In this document: piece by piece, positions 13,862 through 61,300 of the stretch
How positions within the stretch are numbered: the stretch's first letter is position 1
How the letters are laid out: every line of letters starts with the position of its first letter
Made by a program: the position numbers and the translations under genes
Sequence record: OR836606.1
Length of the DNA: 64,000 bases
From: Staphylococcus phage LY01
Strand: one strand, 5' to 3'
Notes under the pieces: generated by a model
Told to the model about the DNA's origin: nothing
Seen by the model: only the letters and a program-made list of their open reading frames with translations
Database searches by the model: none

Positions 13862-13915
13862 ATTCTCTCCTCCGATATAATATAGCTCCGTAATACATTA
13901 TAGAGATAAAATTAA

Positions 13916-14695: not shown

Positions 14696-14751
14696 TTATT
14701 TTTTCAACTCACTTCCATCATATTAATTAATATAAAAGAAAGTTAATTAAA

Positions 14752-15390: not shown

Positions 15391-15406
15391 TAAGTTATTC
15401 TCCTTT

Positions 15407-16015: not shown

Positions 16016-16165
16016 ATCTTTTCCACTCCCTTAATTAGATTAATATAGAGATAATGAATTAATATAATTCATTATCTCATTTTTATAATATATATTTACA
16101 TACATTTTTCATCTAAATAAAAGAGATAACGGACAATTATAGTCCGTTATCTCATCTTTTTAAAT

Positions 16166-18712: not shown

Positions 18713-18798
18713 TTAATACTTCACTTCCAATCTAATTTTATAAAAAAATAAATATATAAAAGCCATGTTAAGCTATAAACTTAACATGGCAATAATTA

Positions 18799-41016: not shown

Positions 41017-41045
41017 GACCAATTAAAAATATGGGGGAATTGTCA

Positions 41046-41699
41046 ATGAAACATTTTTATAAGAAAAGAGAATCTATTGAATTAGATTTAAAAGCTATGT
41101 ATACAAATCATGTAGATGTAATTTCTCGTTACGATTTTGGTGATGAGGAGTTACATCAAATGGTAGATAGATTCATACCTCAAATAGTTGAAGAAATTCA
41201 TGAATTCAATTATGAAATAAATCAAATTACTAATAATCCTGAATGCAATCAATCTCGAAAGTTTGAATATATTAATAATGCATCAAAAGAATTATTAGAT
41301 ATTGTCCTTTACTTAATATCTATCAATTCAACATTATTAAGTAAGTATATGGACAATAAATTTCTTCAAAAAGATATTATCAATTATAATGAGACTCTCC
41401 TTTTAGCTAACGATAAAAGTATTAATGATTATAATAGACTTAATGGTATTAAAATGAAATTGAATGAATATTTAGTTGAATATATGGGATTGATTAGACG
41501 TTCATTACCTAATAGAAAATATCATCAAGATAAAGAAGAAATTAGTCAAGAAGAACAAAATAAAATAGTGAATAATTCATTTTATATCACTCACAAAATG
41601 ATCGTATCTTTATTAGATACATTATTTACTAATTTAGTTTATACTAAAAATCTAGATGATGTATTGAATAAAATACAAGATGTAGTTAAAAATAAATAA
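41046..41699 (+). CDS. hypothetical protein (~217 aa)
   Basis: ORF track; start probably MKHFYKK. Confidence 0.45.
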   Translation: MKHFYKKRESIELDLKAMYTNHVDVISRYDFGDEELHQMVDRFIPQIVEEIHEFNYEINQITNNPECNQSRKFEYINNASKELLDIVLYLISINSTLLSKYMDNKFLQKDIINYNETLLLANDKSINDYNRLNGIKMKLNEYLVEYMGLIRRSLPNRKYHQDKEEISQEEQNKIVNNSFYITHKMIVSLLDTLFTNLVYTKNLDDVLNKIQDVVKNK

Positions 41700-41706
41700 T
41701 ATTAAT

Positions 41707-41772
41707 TCATCCTAACACATTTAGTCCTTAACTGGATTATTTGTGTTAGGATGAATATTTTATTTTTTTTTT
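41707..41772 (+). terminator. rho-independent terminator: hairpin catcctaacaca...tgtgttaggatg plus 13-nt T-run
   Basis: 12 bp stem and long T tract. Confidence 0.7.
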
Positions 41773-41851
41773 ATCTTTTAATTTAATCTATATGATTCTG
41801 ATAGAAACATATATGTATTAAGAAAATCATGTTAGGGGGGAATTATGAAAC

Positions 41852-44800
41852 TTGGCTAAAAATAATAAAAATAAAAAGAATATTAGACAATTAGAAAATA
41901 ACAATAAATCAACTGTTATTAAAAATTCTTCTAAAAATACCGGCCGTATTCTTTTTAATGCGTTTATAAAATCTAACCCGTCATTAGATGCTATAGTGGG
42001 AGATTCAGGTTTAAAATTATTTAACAATGATGAAAGAAGATTAAAAAATTTTTCTGAAGTTAAAGGTTCTACTAATGATCTAATAAAAACTTTAAAAAAT
42101 AAATCTAATGAAAACGATCTTTTTTCAAGTAGTAATGAAAAATTATCTAATGAAAAACCTGAATATGAATCAGTAACAGAATATATTGATAATCCTGATG
42201 GAACTAAATCTGAAATTGTTAGTCTGTCAGATAAAAAGAAATCTAAAATAACAAATTCACCTCTAATAGCGATGAATAATTTGGCTGAGATAAATCAAAG
42301 AGGATTTGTTGGAACGAATATTGCAATGAACAATTATTCTCTATCAATACAAGCAACTAATAGCCTTATATATTCAGCCTTATCAAATTTAAGTACAATA
42401 CAAAATGGTATATATCAAAATACTCTAATGGAAGAAAATACTAAAAGAGATAAACAATCTAAATTACAATCCATAATAAATGGAAATATTAGTTTATTAA
42501 AATATTTAGATGAGAAAACTAATCCTGAAAATTTATTAATGGGTATGATGACCGGAGAACAACTTAAATCAATGTTAATGGGAGTAGCTAAAAACCCTAT
42601 TGAATTTGCTGCAACTCAAGGAGCTAAAATTGCATTTAATAAACTTCTATATGGTGATATTGGCGGGTATGATCCTGAAGGTAGTAATAAAAACATATTT
42701 AACAGATTGAATAAAAGATTTGATCCTCAAAATATAGGATCTATGCTTATTAATAGAAATCTTGTTGAAGATAATAAACTTACTAAAGGTTTAGAAAGAT
42801 TAACCGGTAATGATAATAAGTATATATCTAATTTAGGAAATGCTCTTTCAGATAGACTAAATCAATTAAAAGAAGAAGTATTGGGTGACGGTAAGGGCAG
42901 TATTTCTCTAAAAAATAAACGTAAAAAAGATACTCCGGTTCAATTTGATATGGAATCTCATACGTCTATTAATAAAGTTATACCGGACTTCTTATCTAGA
43001 ATTCAAGGTAATTTGATAGCTAAAAAAGAAGGTCGTTCAGGCGGATTAGCAGATAATGCTGAATTAGGTAGTATTTATAATTATCGAAAAGGTATTTGGG
43101 AAAATCGAAGATCTGCTAAGAAAAATGCATTAGATGAAATTAAATCAGAATCTTTATTCAATTTTAAAGATACTTATTTAGGTAAAGAATTATTATCTAA
43201 ATTAGATAATGATGAAGAAAGAACTAAAGAAGTTTTAACTGAATTAACTAAAATAGACAAACCTATTAAAGAAATTTCTAAACTTAAAGAGATAATTAAT
43301 CAAAAAAATATAAATGTTAGCACTGAATCATTATCGGAAGTGTTTGAAAAGAATTCAGCTAAATTCAATACTGATTTATTCAATATTAAGAAATCTATTT
43401 CAAATACTCTTGATAAAAAAGATAATTCAAGAATAATGTCATTTACTGAAATAGAAGGTTTAAATAAATCTAATTCAACATATTCTAGATCTAACAATGA
43501 TGATGATATTAATCAGATTAAAGATTTTGGCAATATTAACTGGGAAAATAGTGATTTAGAAGAAATTAAAAATATTTTCTTAGAAATAGAAAGAAAATTA
43601 AATAATGACTTCAGTAGCGGTAATATTAATAATAATAAAGAATTTATTAATAATAAAGTCGATACAATCAATAATATTATAGACAAAGGCAAAATTTTCT
43701 CTGTTTTAAGTGGGAATAATGAATCTCATGCTTCTGTAATGGATAAGTTAAATAGTCTTTCTAATGCAGTTAATAAAGCTAAAGAATATAAAGAAAATCC
43801 TACAAGTGCTATTAAAGATATAGCCTCTTCCTTAACTAACAGTGTCAGTCTTCCTCAAGAAAACAACCAATTAATGCGAAATAATGAATATCAATATCAA
43901 AATGTAAATCATCAATCTAGCATTATAGATAATAATCCAGTAATGGATTTAATGAATAATATTCCCGTCTTAAATAGTTTAACGATTAATAACAATGAAG
44001 CTAATAAAGATGCTTACATTAAAGAACCAAGTAAAACTATAGATGATTTAACCAAAGAAGAAAAAGAAAAGAAAGCTAAAAGCACGATAATTGATTTAGT
44101 TAACACTGCTTTTGGTAATGACCCAACTATTAAAAAAGATATGGAAGATTCCCAAGATACTGGAGCTTTAGAAAGAATGAAACAAGGTCTTTCAACTGCT
44201 GATGCTGGAAAACTTGGAGAAAATGTTATGTCTACAATGACTGGGTCTAGTAAGAAAGAAATTGCTGAATCTATTAGAGGTAATATAAACTTTGGAAAAG
44301 GCGGAGAAGCTGAGAAATCTATTGGCACTAAAAAGATGATGAACGGAATGCTTGATTTTAGTAAAATGGGACCAGTTTTATTTGCTGGAACTTCTGCAGC
44401 TGTATTAGGTTCATTAATGAAAGGTAGAAATAGTAAGAAAGATTTAGAAGTCAGTGAAAAAGGATTTTTATCATCTGCTGGAGGATTTTTAGGTAACGCC
44501 GCTATGCTAGGTGCTGGAGGATTCTTGGCTGCTAAATTTGGTCCTAAACTATTATCTAAATTATTACCGGGTGGAGTAGGTAAATTCTTCACTAGTATGC
44601 CTGGTATGTTAGGTAAAATAGGCGGCGGAATTAAAAATATAGCTGGGAAATTTGGATTAGGAAAATTATTTAGAGGTATTAAAGGTGCTCCTAAAAAAAT
44701 AGGTAACGTATTTAAAGGTATTGGAAAATTTGCTAAAGATAAACTACCTACTGTTAAGTCTTTAGGTAAAATGGTTATAGGTAAAGGTGCAGGATTGGTT

Positions 44801-47797
44801 AAAAAGGGATTAAGTACCGGTAAAACTATAGGTAAAGTAGCTAAAAGTGGTATATCTAAGATATTTAATAAAAAGAATGCTTCAGCTGCTACTAAAGGAT
44901 TAAGCAAATTTGCTTCTAAAGGTTTTAACAGAGCTAAATCTATCGGTAAAGGTTTATTTGGTGGTTCTAAGAAACTTGGAGGGAAAGCTTTTGGTGCTAT
45001 AGGTAAAGCTAAAAATAAATTATTTGGTAAAGGTGCAGCGAAAGCTGGAGGAAAATTTGCATTAAAGGCAGGATTGAAAACAGCATTACCATTCATACCA
45101 TTTGTTGGACCAGTGATTGGTGCAGCGATGTGGGCTCCTGATATCATTAAGACTATTAAACACCCTATAGAATCATTAAAACATCCAATTAAAACATTGG
45201 GCAGCTTTTTCGGAATTGGAGAACATCCAGGTGATAAAATAGAAGATGAAGCTAAAAGTAAAGAAGAAAAACATACTGAAGATGAAACAGGTTTAGGACG
45301 ACTAATATTAAGCACGACTAAGCTAATGTTTAGAGCTTCCCCTATGTTCCCACTAGCTAAAGTTGGAGGGAATATGTTTAAAACAGTTACTGATAATAAA
45401 ATGCAATCCGGTCCAAAAGCTGAAGAAAATATTCAAAAAGATATATTCATGAGCACTCCTTTAGGTAGTTTATATCAAATTGCTAAAGGCGGAATCGATT
45501 TCTCTAAATATGGTAAAGGTGAAATTGGAGATTGGTTCAGTCGTTTCTTAGTTAAAATGGAAGAAATGGTTGTTGCAATGTCTAAAATGAGAAATTCTAG
45601 TGGTTCTGGAAGTTCAAGTGGTAGTAGCTCAGGTGGAGATCAGCTTAAAGGAGATGAAATAGAAATAGATAAAAATGCTCCTTCTATTACTTCACAAGGT
45701 ATTTTAAATAAAATACCTGATGACGCTGCCGGCGCTTGGTTGAAGAAACATGAGTTCTGGCAACCATTTGGTAATTATCAAGGATTAGCATTTAATGGAA
45801 GCTCAAAACACTGGGGTATAGATATTGGTATGCCTACAGGAACTGATGTATTGGCAATTGTACCGGGTACTGTTTCTAATGTCTTCGTTGATCATGGCGG
45901 AGGTAATATAATAGAGATTAAAAATGGCGGAATATACACTTGGTATATGCATAATAGTAAAATAATTGCCAAAAAAGGTGACAAAGTCCAAGTAGGTCAA
46001 AAAATCTCAGTTTCAGGTAATACAGGAGCTCAAACAACCGCACCTCACCTTCACTTCCAAGTCATGAAAGGTAGACCTTCAAATGAAACTGCTATAGATC
46101 CAGCACCATATGTTTTCGCAAAAGTTAAAGGAAAAGGCGGAGACAAAGATGATGATAAAAAATCTGATAGTAGTGCTAAAAAAAGTAAGAAGAAAAAAGG
46201 TGATGATGGCGGTGGACACTCTGTTATCGGTGATTTAAATTCACATTCCATTCAGAGGGATATTAAAAGAAAAAGAGCTCAAGATATTAAAAATAGAAAA
46301 ATCCAAGATCGCGTTATTAGACGAGAAGAACAAAGCTTAGCTAAGGCTGAAAGAGAAGACGCATTAAATGTTAAAAAAGTAGCCAAAAAAGTTAATAATA
46401 TATTCAAGAAATTAAAAGATTTAAAAGGAACTAAAGGTACACTTAAATCTTCAAATCAATTTAATAAAGTATTAATTGTTGGTGATGATACAATTAATGA
46501 TGCATCCGTAGATCTTAAAAAGAAAATTAAAGGTGCTAAAGTCGAATCTTCTAATGGTAAAGCATATAGTTTTGGACCATCATCAGGTAGAAAAATACTT
46601 CAAGAAAATGTTTCTGAATATAATAAGAAAGGTATAGCTATTGTTATACAGCTAGGTATGAATGGTGGATTATCGACAGGAGAAGTTACAGAAATACAAC
46701 ATATGTATGATAAAGCACATGTATACTTTGTGACTAATGCAATTAGTAAAAAATTAGAGAATGATACAGAACTATCTAATGCAATAGATGATCTGAATGA
46801 TTCATTAAAGATGTCTGCTGAAAATATAATCGAATGGGATAAAAAAGCATCTGAATCATTGTTTAATGAAGACGGAATCACTCTTAATAATAGAGGTAGA
46901 ATGATCTTTGTTGATCTTATTAAATTGTATATAAACCCATATATTGGCGGAGGCGGTAGCTCTGATGAAGAAAAAATAGATAAGGATATAGATAAAGAAG
47001 AATCTAAAGCTGAGAAGAAAAAATCTAAAGAAAAAGATGAAGAGGAAAATAATGAAGAAACTTCAGATGATGAAGATAAAGGCTCTTCTGCCGAAGGATC
47101 TTCTGAGTATAGTTTTAAAAATGGTACTTGGTACGGATCTATAACTGGAAGAGATGATAGAAGAATGGATGAAGAAGAACAAGAGGAATTAAATGATCGT
47201 TTAATGAAACGATACGCTAAAATTTATGGCATTGATTACGAAGAAGCTAAAAGAATTGATCAAGAACAACAAGAAAAGAAAAAATCTGAAGCAGGAAACA
47301 AAAAGTCTGAATCAAGTGCATCAAGTTCTAATAGCGATAGTTCTTCTGAAAATTCATCAAATAATTCTAGTTCCTCAGCATCAACTTCTAAACCAAATAG
47401 CAATGTAAATATCGGAAACCCTCCTATATTCCAATTACCTACATTAGCTAACAGCGGATTTTCCAATATTAATAGAGGTAATAATACTTTTAATAATCAA
47501 GGTAGTAAAAATACTCAAACAATTAATAATAATTATCAAACCGGACAAAGTGGTATTATTAATAATGAAAAAGTAAATAAAGAATTTATAAAAGGTAAGA
47601 ATAGAGTAACTAACCATTATAATAAAATTGTAAATAATCATAAAAATTCTAAAATTGAAAATGGCAATTCTGGTTATACTTATGATTATGAAAAATTATG
47701 GTATTCAGATGATTTAGTAAGAATGTTAGCTAATATTGATAGAAACACATTAGAGTCTACTAAAGAATTAGATCGTTTATTAGAAGAATTGAAATAG
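41852..47797 (+). CDS. giant virion-associated protein 1 (1981 aa), tape-measure-like, with Gly/Lys-rich repeat region and C-terminal-proximal M23 (LytM-type) peptidase domain
   Basis: TTG GCT start after GGGGGG RBS; M23 motifs HWGIDIGMPTGTDV (HxxxD) and HLHFQV (HxH); GK(x)nGK repeats; Ser/Gly linkers; shared modules with the next gene. Confidence 0.7.
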   Translation: MAKNNKNKKNIRQLENNNKSTVIKNSSKNTGRILFNAFIKSNPSLDAIVGDSGLKLFNNDERRLKNFSEVKGSTNDLIKTLKNKSNENDLFSSSNEKLSNEKPEYESVTEYIDNPDGTKSEIVSLSDKKKSKITNSPLIAMNNLAEINQRGFVGTNIAMNNYSLSIQATNSLIYSALSNLSTIQNGIYQNTLMEENTKRDKQSKLQSIINGNISLLKYLDEKTNPENLLMGMMTGEQLKSMLMGVAKNPIEFAATQGAKIAFNKLLYGDIGGYDPEGSNKNIFNRLNKRFDPQNIGSMLINRNLVEDNKLTKGLERLTGNDNKYISNLGNALSDRLNQLKEEVLGDGKGSISLKNKRKKDTPVQFDMESHTSINKVIPDFLSRIQGNLIAKKEGRSGGLADNAELGSIYNYRKGIWENRRSAKKNALDEIKSESLFNFKDTYLGKELLSKLDNDEERTKEVLTELTKIDKPIKEISKLKEIINQKNINVSTESLSEVFEKNSAKFNTDLFNIKKSISNTLDKKDNSRIMSFTEIEGLNKSNSTYSRSNNDDDINQIKDFGNINWENSDLEEIKNIFLEIERKLNNDFSSGNINNNKEFINNKVDTINNIIDKGKIFSVLSGNNESHASVMDKLNSLSNAVNKAKEYKENPTSAIKDIASSLTNSVSLPQENNQLMRNNEYQYQNVNHQSSIIDNNPVMDLMNNIPVLNSLTINNNEANKDAYIKEPSKTIDDLTKEEKEKKAKSTIIDLVNTAFGNDPTIKKDMEDSQDTGALERMKQGLSTADAGKLGENVMSTMTGSSKKEIAESIRGNINFGKGGEAEKSIGTKKMMNGMLDFSKMGPVLFAGTSAAVLGSLMKGRNSKKDLEVSEKGFLSSAGGFLGNAAMLGAGGFLAAKFGPKLLSKLLPGGVGKFFTSMPGMLGKIGGGIKNIAGKFGLGKLFRGIKGAPKKIGNVFKGIGKFAKDKLPTVKSLGKMVIGKGAGLVKKGLSTGKTIGKVAKSGISKIFNKKNASAATKGLSKFASKGFNRAKSIGKGLFGGSKKLGGKAFGAIGKAKNKLFGKGAAKAGGKFALKAGLKTALPFIPFVGPVIGAAMWAPDIIKTIKHPIESLKHPIKTLGSFFGIGEHPGDKIEDEAKSKEEKHTEDETGLGRLILSTTKLMFRASPMFPLAKVGGNMFKTVTDNKMQSGPKAEENIQKDIFMSTPLGSLYQIAKGGIDFSKYGKGEIGDWFSRFLVKMEEMVVAMSKMRNSSGSGSSSGSSSGGDQLKGDEIEIDKNAPSITSQGILNKIPDDAAGAWLKKHEFWQPFGNYQGLAFNGSSKHWGIDIGMPTGTDVLAIVPGTVSNVFVDHGGGNIIEIKNGGIYTWYMHNSKIIAKKGDKVQVGQKISVSGNTGAQTTAPHLHFQVMKGRPSNETAIDPAPYVFAKVKGKGGDKDDDKKSDSSAKKSKKKKGDDGGGHSVIGDLNSHSIQRDIKRKRAQDIKNRKIQDRVIRREEQSLAKAEREDALNVKKVAKKVNNIFKKLKDLKGTKGTLKSSNQFNKVLIVGDDTINDASVDLKKKIKGAKVESSNGKAYSFGPSSGRKILQENVSEYNKKGIAIVIQLGMNGGLSTGEVTEIQHMYDKAHVYFVTNAISKKLENDTELSNAIDDLNDSLKMSAENIIEWDKKASESLFNEDGITLNNRGRMIFVDLIKLYINPYIGGGGSSDEEKIDKDIDKEESKAEKKKSKEKDEEENNEETSDDEDKGSSAEGSSEYSFKNGTWYGSITGRDDRRMDEEEQEELNDRLMKRYAKIYGIDYEEAKRIDQEQQEKKKSEAGNKKSESSASSSNSDSSSENSSNNSSSSASTSKPNSNVNIGNPPIFQLPTLANSGFSNINRGNNTFNNQGSKNTQTINNNYQTGQSGIINNEKVNKEFIKGKNRVTNHYNKIVNNHKNSKIENGNSGYTYDYEKLWYSDDLVRMLANIDRNTLESTKELDRLLEELK
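45140..45240 (+). repeat. conserved module PDIIKTIKHPIESLKHPIKTLGSFFGIG, repeated in the paralog at 50290-50390
   Basis: Near-identical peptide and nucleotide segment in both giant genes. Confidence 0.6.
47102..47315 (+). repeat. ~215 nt repeat (SEYSFKNGTWYGSITGRDDRRMDEEEQEELNDRLMKRYAKIYGIDYEEAKRIDQEQQEKKKSE) duplicated at 52528-52745
   Basis: Most codons shared over ~70 aa; both copies precede Ser/Gly/Asn-rich C-terminal tails. Confidence 0.65.
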
Positions 47798-47820
47798 ATA
47801 ACAGGAGGTGGAACTAATAA

Positions 47821-50800
47821 TTGGCTAGAAATAAAAAATTTAACACTAGTAAGATAGAGAAGGAGTTTAGAAATAACTCCTCCTCTAAATCTTCTAGAAA
47901 ATATATAGATACTGAATTTAATAAAAATTTAAATAATATAAATTCTAACGATATGAAACGTATGATGGATCAAAACAATCCATTAAAAGCAGTTAAAGAA
48001 TTAAAGAATAAAAAGAAAAAGCAACTACAAAAGATAAGTGAATCAACTAGAGATTTATCTAAAGAAGCTTTAGAATCTACTAAAAATACCTTTAAAACTG
48101 GAGAAACAATTCAAGATAAAGGATCATTAAAAAACTTCAATAGTATGGGTATGGATTTCAGTGGAGATTTTGAAGATTTTAGTTTTGATGATAGTTTTTC
48201 AGATATAGATTCCGACATAGATAATTCTTTAGATGATGGAGATTTCAAATTTGATGACTTTGATAAGGAAGATGATAATAAATCTAAAATAGTGTCTTCC
48301 ACAACAATTATCAATAATGACGGTTCTTCTGCTAAATCTACAGCACTATTAACTTCTTCTGTTTCTAATCTTTCTCAAATAAACACTACTGGATTTACTT
48401 CTATGATTAATAACCTTAATTTAATGAGGGAAGCTAATGATAATATTAGAGAAAGTATGTTCCAGAACTTAAACGGATTAATTCAAACTAGTAATGCTAT
48501 TAGACAAAATACTAAAATTAAAAATATATCCGAAATAAAGAATAGTAATTCATTAGAAGACTTATTTTTATCAAATATAACTTTATCAAATATATTAGAA
48601 GGATCTCAAGAAGAAGGATTTAAAGATAAAGCTAAAGACTTCATCAAAAAACAAGGAACAGAATTACTTAAAGAAGTTATTGGTTCTAAAAAACAAGGAA
48701 TTAAAAGTTCAGGTTTAGTTGATTTAGCTAAAGGTAAAGCTTTTGATTTCCTTAATAATGAAGATACTTTTATAGAGAAAGCGGTTGGCAAATTTGCTAA
48801 TAAAAAACTTAGTCCTTTTAGAGATAATGATAATGGTACTAAACAAAGGAAAAGAGATAAAAGAAGAGATGATTTACTTGAAGACGTTAAATTAGGTAAA
48901 AGCAAGTTAATTGATAAAATATTTGATAATGTAACTGGCGGTATATCAACTGCTAATAAAAAAGATAGAAATCAAAAAGTTGCTTTTGATGTGGAAACTC
49001 ATAATACAATTAATACAGTTATCCCTGGCTATTTATCTAAAATAGTTGGTTTAACTTCAGAAGATGGTCAAGAAATCCACTATGATTATGATTCAGGTTC
49101 TTTTAAAACTTCCAAATCTATTAAAAATGATATAGAAAAAAGAGTTAATAAAACTATCAAAGAATCTAGTTTTACTAAAGAATTTGAAAATATGGCTTCT
49201 GAAATGGGTATTGATCTGTTTAATAATGAAAGTAATAAAAATAAAGCCACATCTAAAATTAAAGAAATTATTTCTAGAAATATTAACAAAAGTGATGAAC
49301 TTGATCAAATTAAATCTAATGACCCAAATGACCCATTTAATATTCTTCTAGATAAAATATTTAATGATAAAGAAGCTAAAACTAGTTTAACTAAAACTAG
49401 AATGCAATTAAATAAAGAATCTAAAGATATTAAGAGAAAATTATCGGGTAGTTCTATAAATGCTCTTAATGACAAGAGTAAAAGAAAAGGTACTTCTAAA
49501 AATATTACATCCAAATTAAGTAATGGAAATAAAAGTGGTATTCTTAGTACTAACAAAGATACTTTATACGATAATATTAACTTTAATATCGTTAATAGAG
49601 ATATAAGTGAGATCAAAAAGATTGTTTCTAGAATAAATAATAAAATACCTGAGAAAAGATATAATAATTCTAACGATAGTAAGTCAAGTGACTTTATTAA
49701 TAATACAAATCAATCTAATGATAATATTTCCAGAGAAATAGATCCTAGAGAGCAAACTTTAAACCAAAATACTTCTTCTAGATCAAATCAGAATAGAGAA
49801 TATGATAATACTAAAAATGGAGATAATGGATCTACTATTATTCCTAATGAACAAATTTTAGAAGATGGACAAACAAAATCGTCTGAAAGTTCAGATAATA
49901 AAGATTTTATAGATAGAATAGAAGAAGCTCAAGATCTTATCGATAGCAATAAATATGTTAAAGAGAAATTTGACAAATATAAAAATAAAGGTAAAAACTT
50001 TGCTAAAGAAAAAATAGGTAAATTGTCCAATACTAAATTAGGTAGTAAAATAACTAGTATGGGCGGTGCTTTAACTGGTAAATTTGCTGCTGGCGGTGCT
50101 TTAATGGCAGGTGCAGGTAGTAGACTTAAAGGAAAACTTAAGGCTAGAGCTACTAGAATGGCTGCTGGAAAAGGTACTAAAAAAGCTATAGGTAAAGGAT
50201 TACTTAAAGCAGGTTCTAAAGTAGGTGCTCGTGTTGGGTTAAATGCTATTCCCGTAGTTGGACAAATTGCATCATTAGCATTAGCCGGTCCAGATATTAT
50301 TAGAACAATAGCCAATCCAATAGAATCGTTAAAACATCCAATTAAAACATTAGGTAGTATTATTGGTTTCAATGACCACCCTTCTAAAACTAAAAAAGAA
50401 CAAGAAAAGTTAGATTCAACTCAACCTGGCGGAGAAAATTTTGCAATTGATCCTTTAGTTGATACTAAAATGAATGGATCTATAGATAAATCTTCAATTA
50501 TTGGAGATTTTATTAAAGATAATCCATTATTAGCTTCCACTCCTTTATTAGGATTAGCAGGAATGGGTTTATATAAATCAATTGTAAAACCGGCATTCGG
50601 TTTAGGTATGAATATGGTTCAAAAAACTACCGGTATGGCTAAGAGTTTTGGAGATCAAACTGATATGGCTATGGAAGAGAAAACAAGTGGCTTTGGCGGT
50701 TTGATTAAAAAAGTTGTCGGCGGTGCTTCTATGTTAATGATGGCACCTTTGGCATTGGCTGGTAAAGGTTTAAGTAATTTAACTGGTATGACTTCAACGC

Positions 50801-53523
50801 TTCTTCAAGGAGGAACTGGTCTAATTAAATCTGGTTGGAATTGGTTAAACGAAAAATTCTCTAGTTATGAAGAAGAAATGGGAAATATGAGTAAAGAAAT
50901 GACTGAAGCTAGTAAAGAAGAATTAAGTTCATATCAAGAAGGAATTGAAAGTGAAGCATCTGATAGAGCTAAAAAAGAGATAGCGGAAATGCAAGGTATG
51001 TCAGATAAAGCTAATAAAGATGCTGAAAAACAAGTAAAAGAATCCGCAGAAAAAACCAGAGACGATATTAAAAAAGATGTAGATGAAACTATGAAGAATT
51101 CACCATTATCAATAATGGGTAGAATTGGTCATCAAATGAATAAATTGATGCCTAAAAATCTTATGAGTAAACTTAAGAAAACTCCTAAAAAATTAGCTGA
51201 AACTATGATGCGTATGTCTCCTTTTTATACTTTATTAAGTAAGAAGAAAAAGAAAAAATCTAAATTAGATATAAATGAGCCAGGCGGAGAAGTAGTTAAT
51301 ACTATTGGAGACTGGTTTGATAAGCTCGGCGGTATGATGAATGATATCATGGCTGGTTTTATGGCCGGCTCTGGATCAAGTTCAGCGGAAGCCTCTGAAA
51401 TCTCAGATGGCGATGCAGCTTCAGTAGGCGGAGAAGGCGCTGAGAAAATATGGAATTTCCTAACTGGTAAGGGACTATCAGAAGAACAAGTTGCAGGTAT
51501 ATTAGGTAACTTTGAACATGAATCTGGAAATAGACCAGATAGAGTTCAAGGAGATGTAGCATTTGACGAAGCAAAAGCAAATAGTTCTATATCAGGTTAT
51601 GGTATAGGTATTGCTCAATGGGATAATGTCCGTAGACAAGGTTTAATGAAGTATGCTAAAAAACAAGGTAAAAAATGGAGTGACTTGGATTTACAATTAG
51701 ATTATTTATGGTATGAATTACAAGGTCCCGAAAGTGCTGCGTTTTCACATCTTAAATCTACTAAAACAGTAGAACAAGCTGCTGCTTCATGGGTGAGTAA
51801 ATATGAAAGAGCGGGTGTACCTGCATTAGGAAACCGTGTATCCTCAGGAAATGCTTTTCTTAAAAAATTTAGTGGTTCTTCTAAAAAATCAACTAAGAAA
51901 AAAGGCGGCGGTGGAGGAGGCTCTAATACAATAGATACTGCTTACTTAAAACAATTTTCTAATATGAGTTCTTCCACTAAAAATATTAATGTAAGAAAAG
52001 TTGCTTATAAAAATAAAGGACTAATTAAAGGAAATCCTCCTATTCAAAAAGGCGGCGGTGGAGGAGGCAGTAGTGGCAACGTTCAAGCTAAAATTAAGAA
52101 AGCTGTAGAATGGGCCAAGAAACAAGTTGGAGCTTCTTACTCACAACCTAACCGTGATGGTGCTAATTCATTTGACTGTTCAAGTTTAGTCTATCGTTCT
52201 TATAGAAAAGCAGGATTAACTGATGTTCCACAAGGTGCTACTACACATACTTTTTGGGATGGAGGTACTCCTTTCGAAAAAATAAACCCTAAAAAAGATG
52301 GATTAAAAGTTGGAGATATTATTTTATGCGCTAATGTGGAACACGTAACAATCTATATCGGTAATGGAAAACAAGTAGAGTCAAATGGAGTTGAAGGCGT
52401 TGTTATCAACAGTGCGAATAAATATAAAAATCAATTTGGTATAGATGGATACATGCGTTATAAAGGCGGCGGACCAAGTGATGGAGGATCTGATAGTGAA
52501 GAGTCTGGAGGAGATTCTCCAGGCGCTTCAGAATACAGCTTTAAAAATGGCACTTGGTACGGATCAATTACTGGTCGTGATGATAACCGTATGGATGAAG
52601 AAGAACAAGAAGCTTTAAATGACCGTTTAATGAAACGTTATGCTCAGATATATGGAATTGATTATGAAGAAGCTAAGAAAATTGACCAAGAACAACAAGA
52701 AAAACTTAAATCTGAAGCTGGCAAGAAAAAATCTGAGTCAGGATCTTCATCTGGTTCGGAAGGATCAACGGGTTCATCTAGTTCAAGTGGATCTGATGGA
52801 AGAGATGGGTCAAATGGACAAGATGGATCATCTTCATCAACTTCAGGTCAATCTCAACAACAAGGTTCAGGAAATTCTTCTGGAGGAAGTACTGTAATTA
52901 ACAATGGAGGAAATACTAATTCTACTATAGTTAATAATAATTATACTTCACCAGGTGCCGCTACTAGTAATTCAACTACCCAACAAATAATTCAAGGGAA
53001 TAATAATACTGTAAGAAATATTTATAATATCACTAATAATTATAATAATTCCACGGTATCTTACAAAAATGGTCCTATGAAAGTTGATAATCAAAAACGC
53101 ATGGATTTAGATGAAATTACTAAGCATACAAGCAATATTGATAAGAATACGGCTAAAATGTTAGAACAGCTTAAGAAAATGTCATTTAAAGGTAATAACT
53201 CTATTATTAATAATAAAGGTAATAATATCTTTAATAACACTACTATCAATGATAAAGGTGACTTAGTTGACCCTAAAGGTAATGTAATTATCAAAGAAAT
53301 TAATAAAGAAATTGATAAAATCATTAAGGACAATTTACAAAATAACCCAGATATTATTAATAATGGTAATATTAATCCTAATGATTCATATAATCCTGGT
53401 ACTGGTGGAAATAACGGTCCTTCACAAGGAGATCCAGATCTTCAAGAAGCTATTAATAGATCTTATGGAGATCAATTTAATATTGACGTGAGATCTGCTA
53501 TACCAGTATTTTCAGGTAAATAA
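47821..53523 (+). CDS. giant virion-associated protein 2 (1900 aa), paralog of protein 1, carrying a lysozyme-like glycosidase module and an NlpC/P60 (CHAP-like) cysteine peptidase module
   Basis: TTG GCT start after AGGAGGTGG; GILGNFEHESGNRPDRVQG...GYGIGIAQWD (phage tail lysozyme-like); NlpC/P60 Cys FDCSSLVYRSY and His HVTIYIGNG; N-terminal region homologous to protein 1 (FDVETHNTINTVIPGYLSKI vs FDMESHTSINKVIPDFLSRI). Confidence 0.7.
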   Translation: MARNKKFNTSKIEKEFRNNSSSKSSRKYIDTEFNKNLNNINSNDMKRMMDQNNPLKAVKELKNKKKKQLQKISESTRDLSKEALESTKNTFKTGETIQDKGSLKNFNSMGMDFSGDFEDFSFDDSFSDIDSDIDNSLDDGDFKFDDFDKEDDNKSKIVSSTTIINNDGSSAKSTALLTSSVSNLSQINTTGFTSMINNLNLMREANDNIRESMFQNLNGLIQTSNAIRQNTKIKNISEIKNSNSLEDLFLSNITLSNILEGSQEEGFKDKAKDFIKKQGTELLKEVIGSKKQGIKSSGLVDLAKGKAFDFLNNEDTFIEKAVGKFANKKLSPFRDNDNGTKQRKRDKRRDDLLEDVKLGKSKLIDKIFDNVTGGISTANKKDRNQKVAFDVETHNTINTVIPGYLSKIVGLTSEDGQEIHYDYDSGSFKTSKSIKNDIEKRVNKTIKESSFTKEFENMASEMGIDLFNNESNKNKATSKIKEIISRNINKSDELDQIKSNDPNDPFNILLDKIFNDKEAKTSLTKTRMQLNKESKDIKRKLSGSSINALNDKSKRKGTSKNITSKLSNGNKSGILSTNKDTLYDNINFNIVNRDISEIKKIVSRINNKIPEKRYNNSNDSKSSDFINNTNQSNDNISREIDPREQTLNQNTSSRSNQNREYDNTKNGDNGSTIIPNEQILEDGQTKSSESSDNKDFIDRIEEAQDLIDSNKYVKEKFDKYKNKGKNFAKEKIGKLSNTKLGSKITSMGGALTGKFAAGGALMAGAGSRLKGKLKARATRMAAGKGTKKAIGKGLLKAGSKVGARVGLNAIPVVGQIASLALAGPDIIRTIANPIESLKHPIKTLGSIIGFNDHPSKTKKEQEKLDSTQPGGENFAIDPLVDTKMNGSIDKSSIIGDFIKDNPLLASTPLLGLAGMGLYKSIVKPAFGLGMNMVQKTTGMAKSFGDQTDMAMEEKTSGFGGLIKKVVGGASMLMMAPLALAGKGLSNLTGMTSTLLQGGTGLIKSGWNWLNEKFSSYEEEMGNMSKEMTEASKEELSSYQEGIESEASDRAKKEIAEMQGMSDKANKDAEKQVKESAEKTRDDIKKDVDETMKNSPLSIMGRIGHQMNKLMPKNLMSKLKKTPKKLAETMMRMSPFYTLLSKKKKKKSKLDINEPGGEVVNTIGDWFDKLGGMMNDIMAGFMAGSGSSSAEASEISDGDAASVGGEGAEKIWNFLTGKGLSEEQVAGILGNFEHESGNRPDRVQGDVAFDEAKANSSISGYGIGIAQWDNVRRQGLMKYAKKQGKKWSDLDLQLDYLWYELQGPESAAFSHLKSTKTVEQAAASWVSKYERAGVPALGNRVSSGNAFLKKFSGSSKKSTKKKGGGGGGSNTIDTAYLKQFSNMSSSTKNINVRKVAYKNKGLIKGNPPIQKGGGGGGSSGNVQAKIKKAVEWAKKQVGASYSQPNRDGANSFDCSSLVYRSYRKAGLTDVPQGATTHTFWDGGTPFEKINPKKDGLKVGDIILCANVEHVTIYIGNGKQVESNGVEGVVINSANKYKNQFGIDGYMRYKGGGPSDGGSDSEESGGDSPGASEYSFKNGTWYGSITGRDDNRMDEEEQEALNDRLMKRYAQIYGIDYEEAKKIDQEQQEKLKSEAGKKKSESGSSSGSEGSTGSSSSSGSDGRDGSNGQDGSSSSTSGQSQQQGSGNSSGGSTVINNGGNTNSTIVNNNYTSPGAATSNSTTQQIIQGNNNTVRNIYNITNNYNNSTVSYKNGPMKVDNQKRMDLDEITKHTSNIDKNTAKMLEQLKKMSFKGNNSIINNKGNNIFNNTTINDKGDLVDPKGNVIIKEINKEIDKIIKDNLQNNPDIINNGNINPNDSYNPGTGGNNGPSQGDPDLQEAINRSYGDQFNIDVRSAIPVFSGK

Positions 53524-53574: not shown

Positions 53575-53612
53575 ATGCGGATATGACAATTTATTATATG
53601 TCATATCCGCAT
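53575..53612 (+). terminator. terminator-like hairpin atgcggatatgacaatttattatatgtcatatccgcat after giant gene 2; overlaps the ORF-track start of the next gene
   Basis: 15 bp stem. The called ATG at 53583 lies inside the hairpin, so the real start of the next gene is probably downstream, e.g. MEKLNIRDEDI at ~53715. Confidence 0.45.
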
Positions 53613-55142
53613 ATATTATTTCAGAAATTAAAAAAGGATGTGAAATCTAAATTGCCTAATGAAAAAGATATAAAAGAACAAATTGAAAAAGCTGAGAAAA
53701 AAGCCAAAGAAAAAGAAATGGAAAAGCTTAATATTAGAGATGAAGATATAGCATTAATACCTCAGCCTGATGAAGGTAAAGGAGATTACGATTTCCATGA
53801 ATATGATCCTAGTCAAAATGATTTAGGTGTATTTAAAGACGCTACAGGTAATACTCGTGACATTTCTGAGTATGGAGCTTCTGATAAAACTAAATTGAGA
53901 AATGTTAAAGGGGAGTTAGATGTATTTGGAATGCCTATGTACTATTCTAGCTTAGATGATCCTAATAGAAGAATATATAAAAGAACATTTGAGTTAGATT
54001 TGCCTTTAGTATTTATAATGCCAGGTATGCCTAAATTAAATGGTAAACTATTTGGTAAACCGGGTGAAGGAAAATTATGGAGTTTTGGAGAAGGTTTAGA
54101 CAGATTAGCAAATACTACTGCTGGTTTAGTCGGTATAGGTAATACTAAAGATGGGCGTATGGTTAGTTTTGAACCTAAAATGAGTGAGTACTATAAATAC
54201 GTGCAAACTATGGGAAGTCAATTACATGCTTCTATGGGTTTAAAAGGTTCATTTGATTTGGGTGGCTCTCTAGATGATAAAAACTATGGATTAGCTTATT
54301 ATGCTGATAAAGCTACTAGTGTATCTGAATCTGGAATGCATGAATATAATCAATCTGATATAGCTTCTCAAATTAATAATAAAAACCAAGAAATTCGTGA
54401 AGAAAAAGAAATGGCTCGTATTGGAGGAGCTTCTATTTTAGGTAAAATTACAAGATCTATTAAAGATAGTATCAATGATATGGTTGCAAGTATGCCAGTA
54501 TTGGGTGGTATAGTTGGTAACTTTATGGAAAACCTAGATGGTGCGTCTATGTATTATCCTGATATTTGGATGAATTCAACTTTTGACCGTACTTATAATT
54601 TAGAATTTAAATTCTATAGTGCGTATGGAGATCCTCAATCTATTTTTGAAAATGTATACTTGCCATTTATGTCATTATTAGTATTAGCTTTACCTTTACA
54701 AGATTCTATTTTCTCATATAAACAACCATTCATTGTTAGAGCAAATTGTCCTGGTAGATTTGAATGCCATACAGGTATTATAACATCAATGAATATAGTT
54801 CGTGGAGAAGAAGGTACATGGACAGCAGATGGTTTCCCTAGAGAAATAACAGTTTCACTAAATGTAAGAGATATGTACCCTAACTTAATGGCATCAAAAT
54901 CATTCCAACGTATGAAATTTAATACAGGTTTAATTTCTTATATTGATTGTTTAGCAGGTATTAGAAGAGATCAACTATCAATTATAGATAAAGCTCAAAT
55001 TAATATGCAAAATCAATATTCAAGAAGTATGCAAGTGTTAAAAGGAAGAGTATTTAAACAGCAAATAGATGATACAATTTATGGTTATAAATCTCAAACA
55101 AACCCTCATCCTAACAGTGCTATTGGAAGTACATTATCATAA
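53583..55142 (+). CDS. hypothetical structural (tail/baseplate?) protein (~475-519 aa); start uncertain
   Basis: ORF track; position between giant virion proteins and tail genes. Confidence 0.45.
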   Translation: MTIYYMSYPHILFQKLKKDVKSKLPNEKDIKEQIEKAEKKAKEKEMEKLNIRDEDIALIPQPDEGKGDYDFHEYDPSQNDLGVFKDATGNTRDISEYGASDKTKLRNVKGELDVFGMPMYYSSLDDPNRRIYKRTFELDLPLVFIMPGMPKLNGKLFGKPGEGKLWSFGEGLDRLANTTAGLVGIGNTKDGRMVSFEPKMSEYYKYVQTMGSQLHASMGLKGSFDLGGSLDDKNYGLAYYADKATSVSESGMHEYNQSDIASQINNKNQEIREEKEMARIGGASILGKITRSIKDSINDMVASMPVLGGIVGNFMENLDGASMYYPDIWMNSTFDRTYNLEFKFYSAYGDPQSIFENVYLPFMSLLVLALPLQDSIFSYKQPFIVRANCPGRFECHTGIITSMNIVRGEEGTWTADGFPREITVSLNVRDMYPNLMASKSFQRMKFNTGLISYIDCLAGIRRDQLSIIDKAQINMQNQYSRSMQVLKGRVFKQQIDDTIYGYKSQTNPHPNSAIGSTLS

Positions 55143-57338: not shown

Positions 57339-57400
57339 TTCAAAAATATTCCCCTAATACTAAATTAATAGTATTAGGGGATTTTATTTGAGAAAATCTA

Positions 57401-58207
57401 TTATTTAAGATCTCCGTTACCAGAGCCGGTGATTCCGCCTTTATTATAGTCGAAATCAGATAAGTTGTCACCAGCAGTTTTAGGTGCAGCTGGATCGAAC
57501 ATACCTTGTTCAGTGAAGCTGTAAATTTCATTAAGTTTAGATTTAGCAAAATCATTTACACGTGAAGAGATTTCCATATTACCTGCAAAGTCTTGCTCAA
57601 TTTGTGCTTCTTCATGAGTTTCCATAGTGTAGTTATGGTGATCAAGAGAAATACGAGTAGGCATTACTGCAGTGTAATAAGCAGCGAATTCAATATTATT
57701 TTTAGATGTATTATTAGCATCCGGACGAGTTTGGATATATAATAATTCACCTGTATGGTTTTTAGCAGCATATTCTAAATTATGAATTTTAGGATAAGTT
57801 GCAATACCAGTACGAGGATCACGGATACCAGATACCCAATATTGATACATATTTTTAATTGGACTACCAGAAAATTCTTGGTGAGTCATTTGGAAACCAG
57901 TGTTTCCTTTTGTAATACTAGCGGCTGTACGATAGTTATTACCATTAAACGTATGCATATATTCATTTGTAGTCATTTCAATATTTTCTAAACCTTGGAA
58001 TGATTTAAAGTTCTTTTGTGTCATAGCTTTAAATCCAGGGAATTGTTTTTCAACCCAAGAAGGAATTTTAGTCCATACTATGAACGAATAACCAGTTACG
58101 AATGGATCAAACTCAAGAGTTTGAAGGTTCATATGTCCATTATAGAACCATTTGTTCTTAGCGATGTTATTGTCAAACACACGCTGATTTTTACTTGGTA
58201 AAATCAT
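57401..58207 (-). CDS. putative tail tube protein (268 aa)
   Basis: Immediately downstream of the tail sheath gene in the same orientation; the canonical sheath-tube order; no motif-level proof. Confidence 0.35.
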   Translation of the reverse strand: MILPSKNQRVFDNNIAKNKWFYNGHMNLQTLEFDPFVTGYSFIVWTKIPSWVEKQFPGFKAMTQKNFKSFQGLENIEMTTNEYMHTFNGNNYRTAASITKGNTGFQMTHQEFSGSPIKNMYQYWVSGIRDPRTGIATYPKIHNLEYAAKNHTGELLYIQTRPDANNTSKNNIEFAAYYTAVMPTRISLDHHNYTMETHEEAQIEQDFAGNMEISSRVNDFAKSKLNEIYSFTEQGMFDPAAPKTAGDNLSDFDYNKGGITGSGNGDLK

Positions 58208-58360: not shown

Positions 58361-61300
58361 TTATTTTTCAACATTAATGTCAATGAAGATACGTTCAATA
58401 ACATTATTGAATTTAACAGAAATTTTAATACGTACAATACGTTGAGATTTATCATATTCATCTGCGCTAACTTCAGCTTGAATAGTTTCACAGCTACGGT
58501 TAGATACATAACGAGTAAGATAAGCATTCAACTCTGTACTCATAATTGAACGAGTTTCATCATCATTTAATTCAAATTGGTAATCAGAAACAAGAGTTTC
58601 TGCATCACGTTTAATTTGGTTTAATGTAAAGATATTATTCAAGTTAGATAATGGACCATCAGATTTAATAGAAGTCATCTGTGCACCAAATTTAGTTTTA
58701 TCAATATCTTTTTCAATGTAGTTGATTTTAGAAGTATAAAGTTTTTCTTTATAAGGTTCATTAGGAGCCCAAGATAAAGCTTTATGGCCTTCAACTAAAC
58801 CACGTCTAGGACCCGCAATTGGGAAATGTAAACCAGAGTTAACAGCTTGATAAGGAATCATTGAAGCTAAACGATAAGTTGGAGTGAAACGAATGTCTCT
58901 ACCAGTGTACTCATCATAATAAGTTAAATCTTGAGAGTAAATAGCTGTATACTCAGAAGAAACAGCAAATTCTTCTTTTCTCCATCTAATTGCATCTTCA
59001 GGACTAACTGGATAACGATCAGTAACTGTGTCGGCTAAGAATACAAAGTCTTTACGAACATTTTTAGCTAATTCAGAGATAGCGAACTTAACTTCATTAG
59101 AATAACGAGCATCAAGTACAACATCAAATGGATAAGCTTTAGTGTTTGTAATTTCTTCGTCTACTAAACCTTTATAAGCTTTAATTAATTCACGATTAAC
59201 TGCATTTTTACGATCCTTATATGAAATATCTTCAGCATATGAGAAGTCGCCATCAGAACCGAATAAGAATTTAACTGGACTAGAAATATCAATAAGGTTT
59301 GTATTGAAGTATTTAGAGTTAGCCTTATTCAAGTTAGCAACTGCTAATTCAATATTTTGATGAGCGTTTAATGTAATATCTCTTTCTGTATAGTTAGAAC
59401 GAGTTTGAATCATTTCGTCAATATTTTTACGGAAGATAGAAATATCATAATAGATTGTATTAACCGCAATACGGACTGCACGAGCAACTTTGTATACAGA
59501 AGCCACTGATACAGCTCTATTAATTAAATCTACTAATTGATTAGCAATTTCATTACAAGTTACGAATACTTCTTCACGGTTAACAGCGTTATCTTCCATT
59601 AATCCTAATGTAATATCGTCAACTAACATTTGTTTGTCAGCCAATGAATTTAACATGGATTCTGGAGAAACTAAGTCACGTTCTGAATCTTCATCGTCAC
59701 CATCAGGAGTAGTGTTAATAAAATTAATTGCTTCTTCAGGGAGTCCTTCACGTACTGCTGGCATTAAGTTATCTATTACATAACGTAATTCTGTTTCAGT
59801 ATCATTTAATACTTTAGCCATTCCTTCTAAGTTAGTTACAGATTTCATACCAATACGTAATTCAGCGATATCATTTGTAATATCTAAGATATTAGATTTA
59901 TGTTGAATACCGAAGATACGGATTTGGTCTTTCTGAGCTAATACATCACGTAATTCTTTAACATCAGCTTGATATTTAGGATTTGAAGAAATACCTGAAT
60001 TAGATTTATAAACTAATTCGTAAGCAGCATTAAGTTTATTACCATTATCTAAGAATTCATTTAATAATAAAGAACCAATTTCTTCTGTTCCAGAAAGAAC
60101 TGCAGAAAGGTTTTCTTCATTTGAATCTTCAAAATAAGTGTTATAATCTTGAACTAAACGTTCAGCTGCTCCAGCAGGTTTACCACCGAAATTAATTTCA
60201 GAAGGTTTGAATTTTCCAGCTAATTCTTCTTCAACTGCTTCTGCATCATTAATATCTGCAGATACATCTTCTTGATTTAATTTTTCAGAAACTAAATTAT
60301 CTTTAATAATTTTAGGTAAGTTACCTGTATCATCATCAAATAAACCATTAGATGGCACAATAATTTTATTCAATAATGATTTAAATTCTGTAAAATTATC
60401 AGAACGTAAAGTTTTGTATTGATCTCTCATATAAGAAAGACGGTCTGAATCTGTAACGAAAGTTTTTTCACGCATACCATTATCTAATGAAATTAATGCG
60501 TTTTCAACTGGATCATTAAAATCAGGTTTATTCAATACGTGTTTACCACTAATAGTTACTGGTAGACCTTTGTTATTATAACGGTGTAAAGCAATATGAA
60601 CATCTTCCGTTTGTTTAGTTTCTTCTGAATAGAAAGTTTCAGGAGTTCCATCAATACTAATTTTAGATTTACCAGAAATAACATCAATACTTGCAGGATG
60701 TACATTAGGGTTAATTTCTTTAGCTAGATTTTGGAAGTTTTCTAGATTAAATTTGATGTTAATGTATTTAGAATAACGATTAACAACTTCTTCAATAAAC
60801 ATTGATTCACCGGTATCTGAAATCGAATCTGGATCAAATGTAACTAAGAATGGACCATCAATTACGTTAACGTTACCAAAATCATCAAATTCAAGAACTT
60901 CTAAGTTGTAAACACGTTCAGTACGACCACTAGTGTCATAAGAAGTATTTAGAGTTAAACGAATACCTAAATCATTATAAGATTCACCACGACCATTAGG
61001 ATAAGCTAAAAGTAAGAAGTTATTGTTATAACCATCTACTGTTTGCTCATTACCACGGTCTAAAGTAATTTCATTAACTAATTCTTCAATATTTCTATTA
61101 TTTTTCTTAACAAATGCAATTGTTGGACGAATTTTGACATCGTCAATTTTAACCAATTCATTTGATTCTGTTAAAACTTTTTTACCATCTTTTTGTACTC
61201 TACTTTGTACGTTTAATATAGCATGTGAATAAGTTGCATTTTGCGGTAGAATACGTAATACATAAGCTTGACCACCAGAACGTAACCAGTTCACGATGTT

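Follow-up and report, generated by a model that had tools for sequence, protein, structure and literature searches.

In phiKZ/AR9-type jumbo phages the counterpart of the locus analysed here is a single giant gene. A review (PMC5380687) counts phiKZ gp181 among the virion peptidoglycan hydrolases, as part of the cell-puncturing device, and its positional orthologue PhiPA3 gene 213, through which we viewed it, encodes 2319 amino acids (aa) between the homologues of gp180 and gp182. The AR9 gene gp203 encodes a 1925-aa 'tail tape measure protein' in which aa 1468-1658 form a lysozyme-type domain resembling VgrG3, and one giant gene is likewise present in BpSp (gp263; 1797 aa) and phiR1-37 (g083; 2553 aa). 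Staphylococcus jumbo phages carry two such genes side by side, which GenBank names 'tape measure protein' (gp087) and 'tail lysin' (gp086) in MarsHill and annotates both as tape measures in SA1. We analysed a 64,000-nucleotide (nt) stretch of Staphylococcus phage LY01 (OR836606.1; hereafter the window) that contains an adjacent pair of this kind, open reading frame (ORF) A and ORF B (Table 1).

Much of what can be said about the pair by itself was already on record. The passages of Korn et al. (bioRxiv 10.1101/2020.12.14.422802) on these proteins describe 'two potential tape measure proteins', one with PF18013 and PF00877, and report a high helical content and predicted transmembrane domains in both, and the corresponding passages of the DC4 paper (PMC10638138) mention an M23-bearing tape measure alongside a tail lysozyme. 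The term 'paralog' does not occur in the available text of the preprint, and cassette exchange is not discussed in the passages of either paper. A sequence-only reading of the window had proposed a duplicated tape-measure-like gene with swapped wall hydrolases and had called this arrangement unusual. Because the GenBank annotation and the two papers already give the pair and its domains, that finding as first stated is essentially known, and 'unusual' is too strong a word: GenBank annotates the pair in nine relatives, and tandem arrays recur in metagenomic phages. The literature on two tape measure proteins, in the portions available, held no clear precedent for paralogous tape measures, the phiCbK paper being concerned with chaperones. 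The new content is comparative and modest: a probably ancient paralogous array, the shuffling of cassettes, the recombinant cassette of the window, and an OatA-like module that the available text of the two papers does not mention.

Both ORFs are ~6 kb long and open as had been noted (TTG GCT AAA AAT AAT in A; TTG GCT AGA AAT AAA in B). Comparison of A with B by BLASTP gave three collinear homologous blocks: an N-terminal block (A 140-609, B 180-636; 25% identity, E 6e-10), which bears out the proposed shared N-terminal domain over ~470 aa, a middle block (A 1049-1149, B 781-870; 47% identity, E 2e-20) and a C-terminal block (A 1741-1981, B 1560-1785; 45% identity, E 3e-38). ORF B has ~115 additional C-terminal residues. 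Within the N-terminal block a core profile hidden Markov model (HMM; V.FD..T[HR]..I..VIP..L[SA]KI) matched A with E 1e-45 and B with E 6e-57, placing both with the gp181/gp203-type proteins. Judged by these blocks and by the domains described below, A and B are true paralogues of a tape-measure-like gene that carry different peptidoglycan hydrolases, as the sequence-only reading had it.

The basic region of A (Table 1) consists of 22% G and 21% K, with D and E each below 1%, and that of B (736-805) of 21% G and 17% K with no D or E at all. The Gly/Lys richness noted earlier is thus real, and the accompanying word 'repeat' is not: Tandem Repeats Finder returned no tandem array in either region, and what is seen is compositional bias. 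In A and in B this stretch runs straight into the only strongly hydrophobic segment of the protein, with which the shared middle block opens; B has a further hydrophobic segment at 961-979. The module PDIIKTIKHPIESLKHPIKTLGS, proposed as common to the two proteins, is exact in A, and the B version PDIIRTIANPIESLKHPIKTLGS agrees with it at 20 of 23 residues; the middle block was also found in proteins of the related contigs L012, L013 and L015. The near-identical segment of about 70 aa proved to be a 66-aa stretch of the C-terminal block (the C-block) with 91% amino-acid and 83% nucleotide identity between the copies. It was 81-91% identical to the window copy in all 12 A and B proteins of the Staphylococcus clade, with only a weak match outside that clade. 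Recent gene conversion as the sole cause of this likeness was rejected, as 17% of nucleotides differ between the copies, and so do 21 of the 60 codons at which the encoded residue is identical. The A-B identity of the C-block in Machias and SA1 is slightly above the orthologue identity, and the whole pattern fits strong shared constraint with occasional conversion.

The enzyme cargo differs between the two proteins in the way first described, with an M23 peptidase in A and a lysozyme-like module plus NlpC/P60 in B, all recognised by Pfam (cut-offs 28.7 bits for Peptidase_M23 and 28.2 bits for Phage_lysozyme2). The motifs HWGID, YMH and HLH of the A peptidase, which supply the zinc ligands (HxxxD and HxH) and the catalytic His, are all kept in alignment to its nearest structures, 5KQB, LytM and lysostaphin. 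Its nearest phage relatives are M23 domains within the tape measures of Staphylococcus siphophages (phi12, 3A, 47, 42E; 39-54% identity), and by analogy with the aligned peptidases it is predicted to have Gly-Gly specificity and to cut staphylococcal pentaglycine bridges. In the B lysozyme the Glu of GNFEHES aligned to the Glu of GNMQSES in phi29 gp13 (PDB 3CSR/3CSQ), a Glu of the GN..ES motif that we take to be the catalytic residue of gp13-type lysozymes. The best PDB match of the B NlpC/P60 domain is the diffocin hub-hydrolase CD1368 (8V3W); in alignments with CD1368 and CwlO its Cys (FDCSS) and His (EHVTIY) are conserved, and the third residue appears to be a Glu (QVES) where CD1368 has a His. 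Where alignable, the catalytic residues of M23, lysozyme and NlpC/P60 are thus intact, and substitutions of the kind that would have marked these domains as dead were not seen. The count of three hydrolases was correct as far as it went and incomplete: A has an additional OatA-like SGNH domain, so the pair holds four modules, one of them dead.

ORF A was compared in 50-aa sliding windows with the A proteins of MarsHill, S6 and Machias. The A scaffold (aa 1-1250 and 1751-1981) was ~84-100% identical to MarsHill/S6 in nearly all windows, the exceptions being two low-complexity stretches (651-700, 60-62%; 1801-1850, 56-70%). Identity to MarsHill/S6 fell to 28-57% across aa 1251-1750, and over the same span A was 78-88% identical to Machias in the M23 part and 42-66% in the rest. 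This agrees with the DNA comparison, in which the two-gene region matched MarsHill with 88% identity over 87% of the query and 13% of the query was without MarsHill coverage. Since the scaffold is MarsHill/S6-like and the cassette Machias-like, the window version of A is by this comparison a recombinant, and one that is absent from the phage collection. The right-hand boundary of the cassette coincides with the conserved C-block, an obvious homology arm for such an exchange, and B showed no comparable break in identity. The enzyme block of A, as judged from these identity profiles, behaves as a replaceable cassette. The word 'swapped' in the sequence-only reading is borne out in two ways, by this exchange between phages and by the metagenomic relative L012, whose two scaffolds carry lysozyme and M23 the other way round.

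The SGNH domain of A matched the OatA C-terminal domain structures 6WN9/6VJP (the identity of 6VJP being taken from PMC9487903) with E 8e-9 for the single sequence and E 7e-15 for a four-orthologue profile, over residues 6-153 of 159. In the window block I reads GDD in place of GDS (Ser to Asp) and block V reads DGIT in place of DGIH (His to Thr); as the block I Ser and the block V His are both replaced, the module is SGNH-like by its alignment and not an active enzyme of the SGNH-AT3 family. Machias and SA1 have GDE and G(Y)M, placing Glu and Met at the catalytic Ser and His. The allele of MarsHill, S6 and Madawaska, ~35% identical to that of the window, retains GDS and GVH, and the module is apparently live in MarsHill/S6; the block III Asn is retained in all alleles compared. 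Among 50,697 phage records the domain was found only in the A genes of the nine relatives, plus two weak matches, and the window allele was at most 58% identical to any of them. One protein-database homologue search with the SGNH region came back blank although relatives exist in GenBank, and that database seems to lack the clade. An AlphaFold2 model built from two sequences had a predicted local distance difference test (pLDDT) score of 48 and was unusable, so that the beta-alpha-beta arrangement in its first part is no evidence. The terms SGNH, OatA and esterase do not occur in the available text of the Korn et al. preprint or the DC4 paper.

Within the Staphylococcus clade, MarsHill, S6, PALS_2, DC4, Madawaska, SA1, Machias, AH12 and PB50 have the same genes, order, lengths, TTG-start operon layout and Pfam domains, with the same domains confirmed in Machias and SA1 and region matches spanning all nine relatives; the window differs from MarsHill/S6 in its Machias-like enzyme cassette of A. 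Both genes are full-length in five Staphylococcus jumbo phages, and with the window the frames are intact in six of six genomes (~1900-2000 codons). Orthologues are 54-90% identical across the clade over the first 700 aa.

Outside the clade the pair occupies the gp181/gp203-type slot, directly upstream of a gp182/gp204-type gene, here encoding 519 aa. This downstream gene is conserved in AR9 (gp204), PBS1, BpSp, LPJP1, phiR1-37 (g085) and phiKZ-like phages (gp182 family) by tblastn, and its product is 41-55% identical to those of the downstream genes in L012-L015; in phiR1-37 one small gene stands between the giant gene and this homologue. The core HMM matched all giant genes (AR9, BpSp, phiR1-37, L012-L015) with E 1e-18 to 1e-58 and PhiPA3 gene 213 with E 1e-13, at aa 290-550 except in the 1393-aa L012 protein (aa 152-310), and it also matched sequences outside its building set. 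With the first 700 aa in BLASTP, B reaches AR9, BpSp and phiR1-37 and A does not, and a profile search of 1.84 billion representative proteins returned only ten relatives. The AR9, BpSp and phiR1-37 proteins share with A and B the slot, the position of the core motif and a length of 1797-2553 aa, and further shared features of AR9 gp203 are a Gly-rich region that has a hydrophobic segment and the placement of its wall hydrolase roughly three quarters of the way along the chain. They differ in being present in one copy instead of two, in the VgrG3-like C-terminal lysozyme-type cargo of AR9, and in the C-block, which AR9 gp203 lacks and which none of the three matched by BLASTP. phiKZ gp181, viewed through PhiPA3 gene 213, is likewise giant (~2300 aa), in the gp180-gp182 slot, with the core FNQLTQRSITEVIPGLL and a wall-degrading domain; it differs in its single copy, glycosidase/transglycosylase cargo and Gram-negative host, and PhiPA3 gene 213 has almost no similarity beyond the core. 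LPJP1 has one giant gene that is apparently fragmented. In the record of this Listeria phage (L007 10798-15384) it is read as three ORFs of 565, 269 and 594 aa, of which the first and third match the N-terminal core and the NlpC/P60 region of A/B, and the split may reflect frameshifts or sequencing errors.

Three further tandem arrays were found on contigs of relatives (L012, L013 and L015; Table 1), each followed by a gp182-like gene, the largest being that of L015 with three giant paralogues. When the non-enzymatic parts were compared, A was nearest to the first gene of L012 (197 vs. 129 bits, extreme C-terminus included) and B to the second (251 vs. 129 bits). The cargo is crossed: in L012 it is the A-like protein that carries the lysozyme (52% identical to that of B) and the B-like one that carries the M23 domain. 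Because of these tandem arrays and the crossed scaffold and cargo in metagenomic relatives, the A-type/B-type two-gene array is likely older than the Staphylococcus clade, with cassettes having moved between scaffolds. A neighbour-joining tree of the core (Poisson distances) recovered a Staphylococcus A clade (100%) and B clade (99%), with poor support for deeper nodes.

Wall hydrolases on tail proteins are also known from phages with other scaffolds. T5 Pb2 is listed as a muralytic tail-tube protein (PMC5380687); this protein and the tape measures of the Staphylococcus siphophages, with their embedded M23, are single, and their scaffolds are without homology to A/B. The B lysozyme is of the phi29 gp13 N-terminal type, and the L013 protein P0005 has lysozyme and M23 on one chain. 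The C-terminal half of phi29 gp13 is an M23 domain. gp13, a tail-knob enzyme, differs from the window proteins in being small (a 334-residue chain) without a tape-measure scaffold, and the activities are split in the window over two giant paralogues.

We favour, with a probability of roughly 60%, the reading in which the giant tail 'tape-measure / structural lysin' gene known from phiKZ/AR9-type jumbo phages is present here as two old paralogues, A and B, whose products are ejected with complementary enzymes. The two genes would be transcribed late as one unit. The parts that the proteins share (N-terminal core, basic Gly/Lys stretch plus hydrophobic helix, C-terminal block) would mediate the incorporation of both into the lumen of the tail or the hub of the baseplate. 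Sheath contraction would then expel both, each bringing a different and complementary set of wall enzymes, with the hydrophobic segments aiding membrane crossing. The A set would comprise a lysostaphin-type M23 endopeptidase and the SGNH module, inactive in the window, and the B set a muramidase-type lysozyme and an NlpC/P60 stem-peptide peptidase. The enzyme cassette between the upstream scaffold and the downstream C-block would move by recombination between phages and between the two scaffolds. Virion association is suggested by synteny with tube, sheath, wedge and the phiKZ-gp182-like virion protein, together with the homologous gp181 slot of phiKZ. The place of the proteins in the virion, their ejection, the timing of expression and the substrate specificities are what we infer. 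The tail genes concerned (wedge, 34265-36493; tube, 57401-58207, PF23806; sheath, 58361-61513) all lie within 16 kb, and the 222-aa gene upstream and the gp204/gp182-type gene downstream complete the surroundings expected of a tape measure in a tail module.

Several points weigh against this reading. The DC4 virion analysis by liquid chromatography-mass spectrometry (shallow, 15 proteins), in the available part of the paper, lists neither an A nor a B orthologue (PMC10638138), and the BpSp proteome (shallow, 23 proteins) is likewise without an A/B homologue. Folded enzyme domains are hard to fit in a tail tube, which requires each protein to be partly unfolded or partly located in the hub. At ~0.15 nm per helical residue the 233-nm tail of MarsHill corresponds to ~1550 helical residues, for which A or B alone would suffice; without the globular modules A has ~1690 residues and B ~1610, and the tail length therefore fits either and singles out neither. 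Finally, the deep branches of the core tree are unresolved, and the proposed age of the duplication leans on reciprocal scaffold similarity to a single metagenomic contig.

It is plausible, though in our view less likely, that labour is divided in line with the GenBank names: A alone would be the tape measure, filling the tube and setting its length, and B would be a lysin of the tail tip or hub in which nothing but the docking parts of the ancestor survives. The sequence-only reading had offered both possibilities, two ejected proteins or a tape measure plus a tail-tip lysin, and the present evidence is compatible with either. This would explain why the first gene of the L013 and L015 arrays, with an A-type scaffold, has no detectable enzyme domain and the following copies hold all of them, and it would suit the first position of A in the operon in every case, the extra C-terminal residues of B and the likeness of its NlpC/P60 domain to a baseplate hub-hydrolase of a contractile bacteriocin. 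A also bears an intact M23, however, and B retains the Gly/Lys region, the hydrophobic helix and its full length, and keeps the N-terminal core better than A does, still matching the single-copy AR9, BpSp and phiR1-37 proteins by BLASTP. The proteins of single-copy relatives, moreover, bear an enzyme and are themselves annotated as tape measure.

A more speculative elaboration, which we regard as unlikely, would make A and B obligate partners that form a heteromeric complex in the tail lumen through the core, the hydrophobic block and the C-block (~90% identical between A and B in each Staphylococcus jumbo phage), with their cargos acting in sequence on the staphylococcal wall. O-acetyl groups render S. 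aureus peptidoglycan lysozyme-resistant. An SGNH module of the MarsHill/S6 type might strip these groups and so license the B lysozyme, the dead versions of the window, Machias and SA1 might only bind O-acetylated glycan, and the C-block would serve as the recombination joint for cassettes among A, B and other phages.

That A and B are instead ejection proteins packaged in the head and leaving via the tail seems to us improbable; they would then resemble the internal or ejected proteins known from phages like phiKZ and T7. Phages related to phiKZ do eject many proteins, and the DC4 and BpSp proteomes place neither protein in the virion, but the genes lie in the tail block, and the product of the homologous slot in phiKZ is assigned to the puncturing device of the tail; by analogy, SPN3US gp239, annotated as tape measure, is missing from tailless particles. 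Least credible of all is that one copy is a redundant, decaying duplicate without function, for which only the dead SGNH module within A could speak, against the intact frames in all six genomes, strong Shine-Dalgarno sequences, intact aligned catalytic residues, the 54-90% orthologue identity and the two-gene arrays of other lineages.

Compared across phages, the giant gp181/gp203-type tail protein is a scaffold with swapped wall-degrading cassettes, among which M23, gp13-type lysozyme, NlpC/P60, Amidase_5, glucosaminidase, a VgrG3-like domain and OatA-like SGNH were seen, and several Gram-positive-type lineages hold it as an old array of two or three genes. The pair alone adds little, being annotated in MarsHill/S6-type phages, and the comparative picture is of some wider value. 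It offers enzybiotic work a natural collection of staphylolytic modules carried by virions, and a clean case for the question of whether one tail can hold two different tape-measure-like proteins. The live and dead alleles of a host-derived-looking OatA domain bear on how phages handle O-acetylated, lysozyme-resistant peptidoglycan.

Table 1. Features in and around ORF A and ORF B of the window, and giant-gene arrays on three contigs of relatives
Feature	Coordinates	Strand	Basis or remark
222-aa gene, candidate tail-assembly chaperone	41031..41699	+	No Pfam/PHROG family; BLASTP to relatives' upstream genes
Intrinsic terminator closing preceding transcription unit	41705..41772	+	21-bp stem, -31.8 kcal/mol, z = -11.3, then T-run
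AR9-type late-promoter-like motif AACA-N6-TA	41806..41817	+	35 nt upstream of ORF A start; putative function
ORF A, orthologue of MarsHill gp087 'tape measure protein'	41852..47797	+	1981 aa
A N-terminal core, aa 309-478, VQFDMESHTSINKVIPDFL	42776..43285	+	Profile HMM
A Gly/Lys/Ala-rich basic low-complexity region, aa 861-1075	44432..45076	+	Composition
A shared middle block: only strongly hydrophobic segment of A (aa 1077-1095), then PDIIKTIKHPIESLKHPIKTLGS	45077..45301	+	BLASTP, hydrophobicity
A exchangeable enzyme cassette, aa 1251-1750 (M23, linker, SGNH-like module)	45602..47101	+	Sliding identity
A Peptidase_M23, lysostaphin/LytM type, aa 1319-1417	45806..46102	+	Pfam E 7e-23, 81 bits
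A OatA-C-terminal-like SGNH domain, aa 1538-1698, catalytically dead in window	46463..46945	+	6WN9/6VJP match
A near-identical C-block, EYSFKNGTWYGSITGRDD...KSEAG	47102..47299	+	91% aa / 83% nt to B copy
ORF B, orthologue of MarsHill gp086 'tail lysin'	47821..53523	+	1900 aa
B N-terminal core, aa 342-498, VAFDVETHNTINTVIPGYL	48844..49314	+	Nearer family consensus than A core
B shared middle block: hydrophobic aa 805-823, then PDIIRTIANPIESLKHPIKTLGS	50236..50430	+	BLASTP, hydrophobicity
B Phage_lysozyme2 (PF18013, phi29 gp13 N-terminal type), aa 1207-1350	51439..51870	+	Pfam E 1e-36, 126.6 bits
B NlpC/P60 cysteine peptidase	52081..52470	+	Pfam NLPC_P60 aa 1449-1534, E 2e-9
B near-identical C-block	52531..52728	+	91% aa / 83% nt to A copy
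519-aa conserved virion protein	53583..55142	+	AR9 gp204 / phiR1-37 g085 / phiKZ gp182 family; always after giant gene(s); tblastn and annotation
Bidirectional terminator, probable end of unit beginning at ORF A	57350..57381	.	Next terminator after ORF B
L012 array: 1393 aa (lysozyme), then 1721 aa (M23)			Pfam cargo
L013 array: 1467 aa (no enzyme domain), then 1753 aa (lysozyme + M23)			Pfam cargo
L015 array (ENA ERZ28637233 scaffold_289, 44% G+C): 1565 aa (none), 1817 aa (lysozyme + Amidase_5), 1704 aa (glucosaminidase + Amidase_5)	5283-20659		

The window is very AT-rich (24-35% G+C) and is by its matches DNA of a MarsHill/S6-like Staphylococcus jumbo myophage; weaker or partial DNA matches of the two-gene region were to S6, PALS_2, DC4, Madawaska, SA1, Machias, PB50 and AH12. 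A plasmid origin was ruled out, a plasmid match being absent. In MarsHill the flanking genes of the pair are those for a RecD-like helicase, baseplate wedge, tail sheath and a 'virion associated protein'; the window counterpart of the last is the gene at 57401-58207, which matches the tail-tube family. By BLASTP the 222-aa gene upstream of ORF A is related to genes of LPJP1 (E 2e-14), L013 (367 aa; 2e-11), AR9 (gp201; 3e-6) and BpSp (gp261; 3e-3), which adjoin the giant gene in LPJP1 and L013 and are separated from it by one small gene in AR9 and BpSp. No frameshifted chaperone pair was identified near the giant genes. Pfam and PHROGs were blank for the N-terminal domains of ORF A and ORF B, the upstream 296-aa and 222-aa genes and the downstream 721-aa gene. 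In Machias (L004 14766-16692) the gp182-like gene is annotated as two exons split by a 'transposase' gene, for which the annotators' HHpred match to CasX suggests a TnpB-like element.

Each ORF has its own Shine-Dalgarno sequence (AGGGGGG at 41834-41840 for A; AGGAGGTGG at 47803-47811 for B), and MarsHill annotation places a terminator where one precedes ORF A in the window. Late co-transcription of ORF A, ORF B and probably the next two genes would follow from this preceding terminator, the promoter-like motif, the 23-nt spacer between the ORFs and the lack of a convincing terminator directly after ORF B, the next being that at 57350-57381. The AR9 late-promoter consensus is AACA-(6N)-TA/G (PMC5312081). 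In the window AACAN6TAT was threefold rarer than expected (9 sites vs. 29.9; all shuffles had at least 9), occurring at 2925, 11644, 16326, 34220, 41806, 45807, 56066, 61591 and 62643. Four of the nine sites (34220, 41806, 61591, 62643) lie upstream of genes starting at 34265 (wedge), 41852 (ORF A), 61513 (sheath) and 62609, a placement that suggests AR9-type late promoters in the Staphylococcus phage. Phages of the MarsHill/AR9 type have RNA polymerases of their own. A sigma-70 promoter scan of the window gave sites at or below chance (103 vs. 112 expected) and was set aside. An antisense 433-aa ORF with a GTG start (44014-45315, minus strand) lies opposite the Gly/Lys-rich part of ORF A and probably arises from the skewed codon content of that part.

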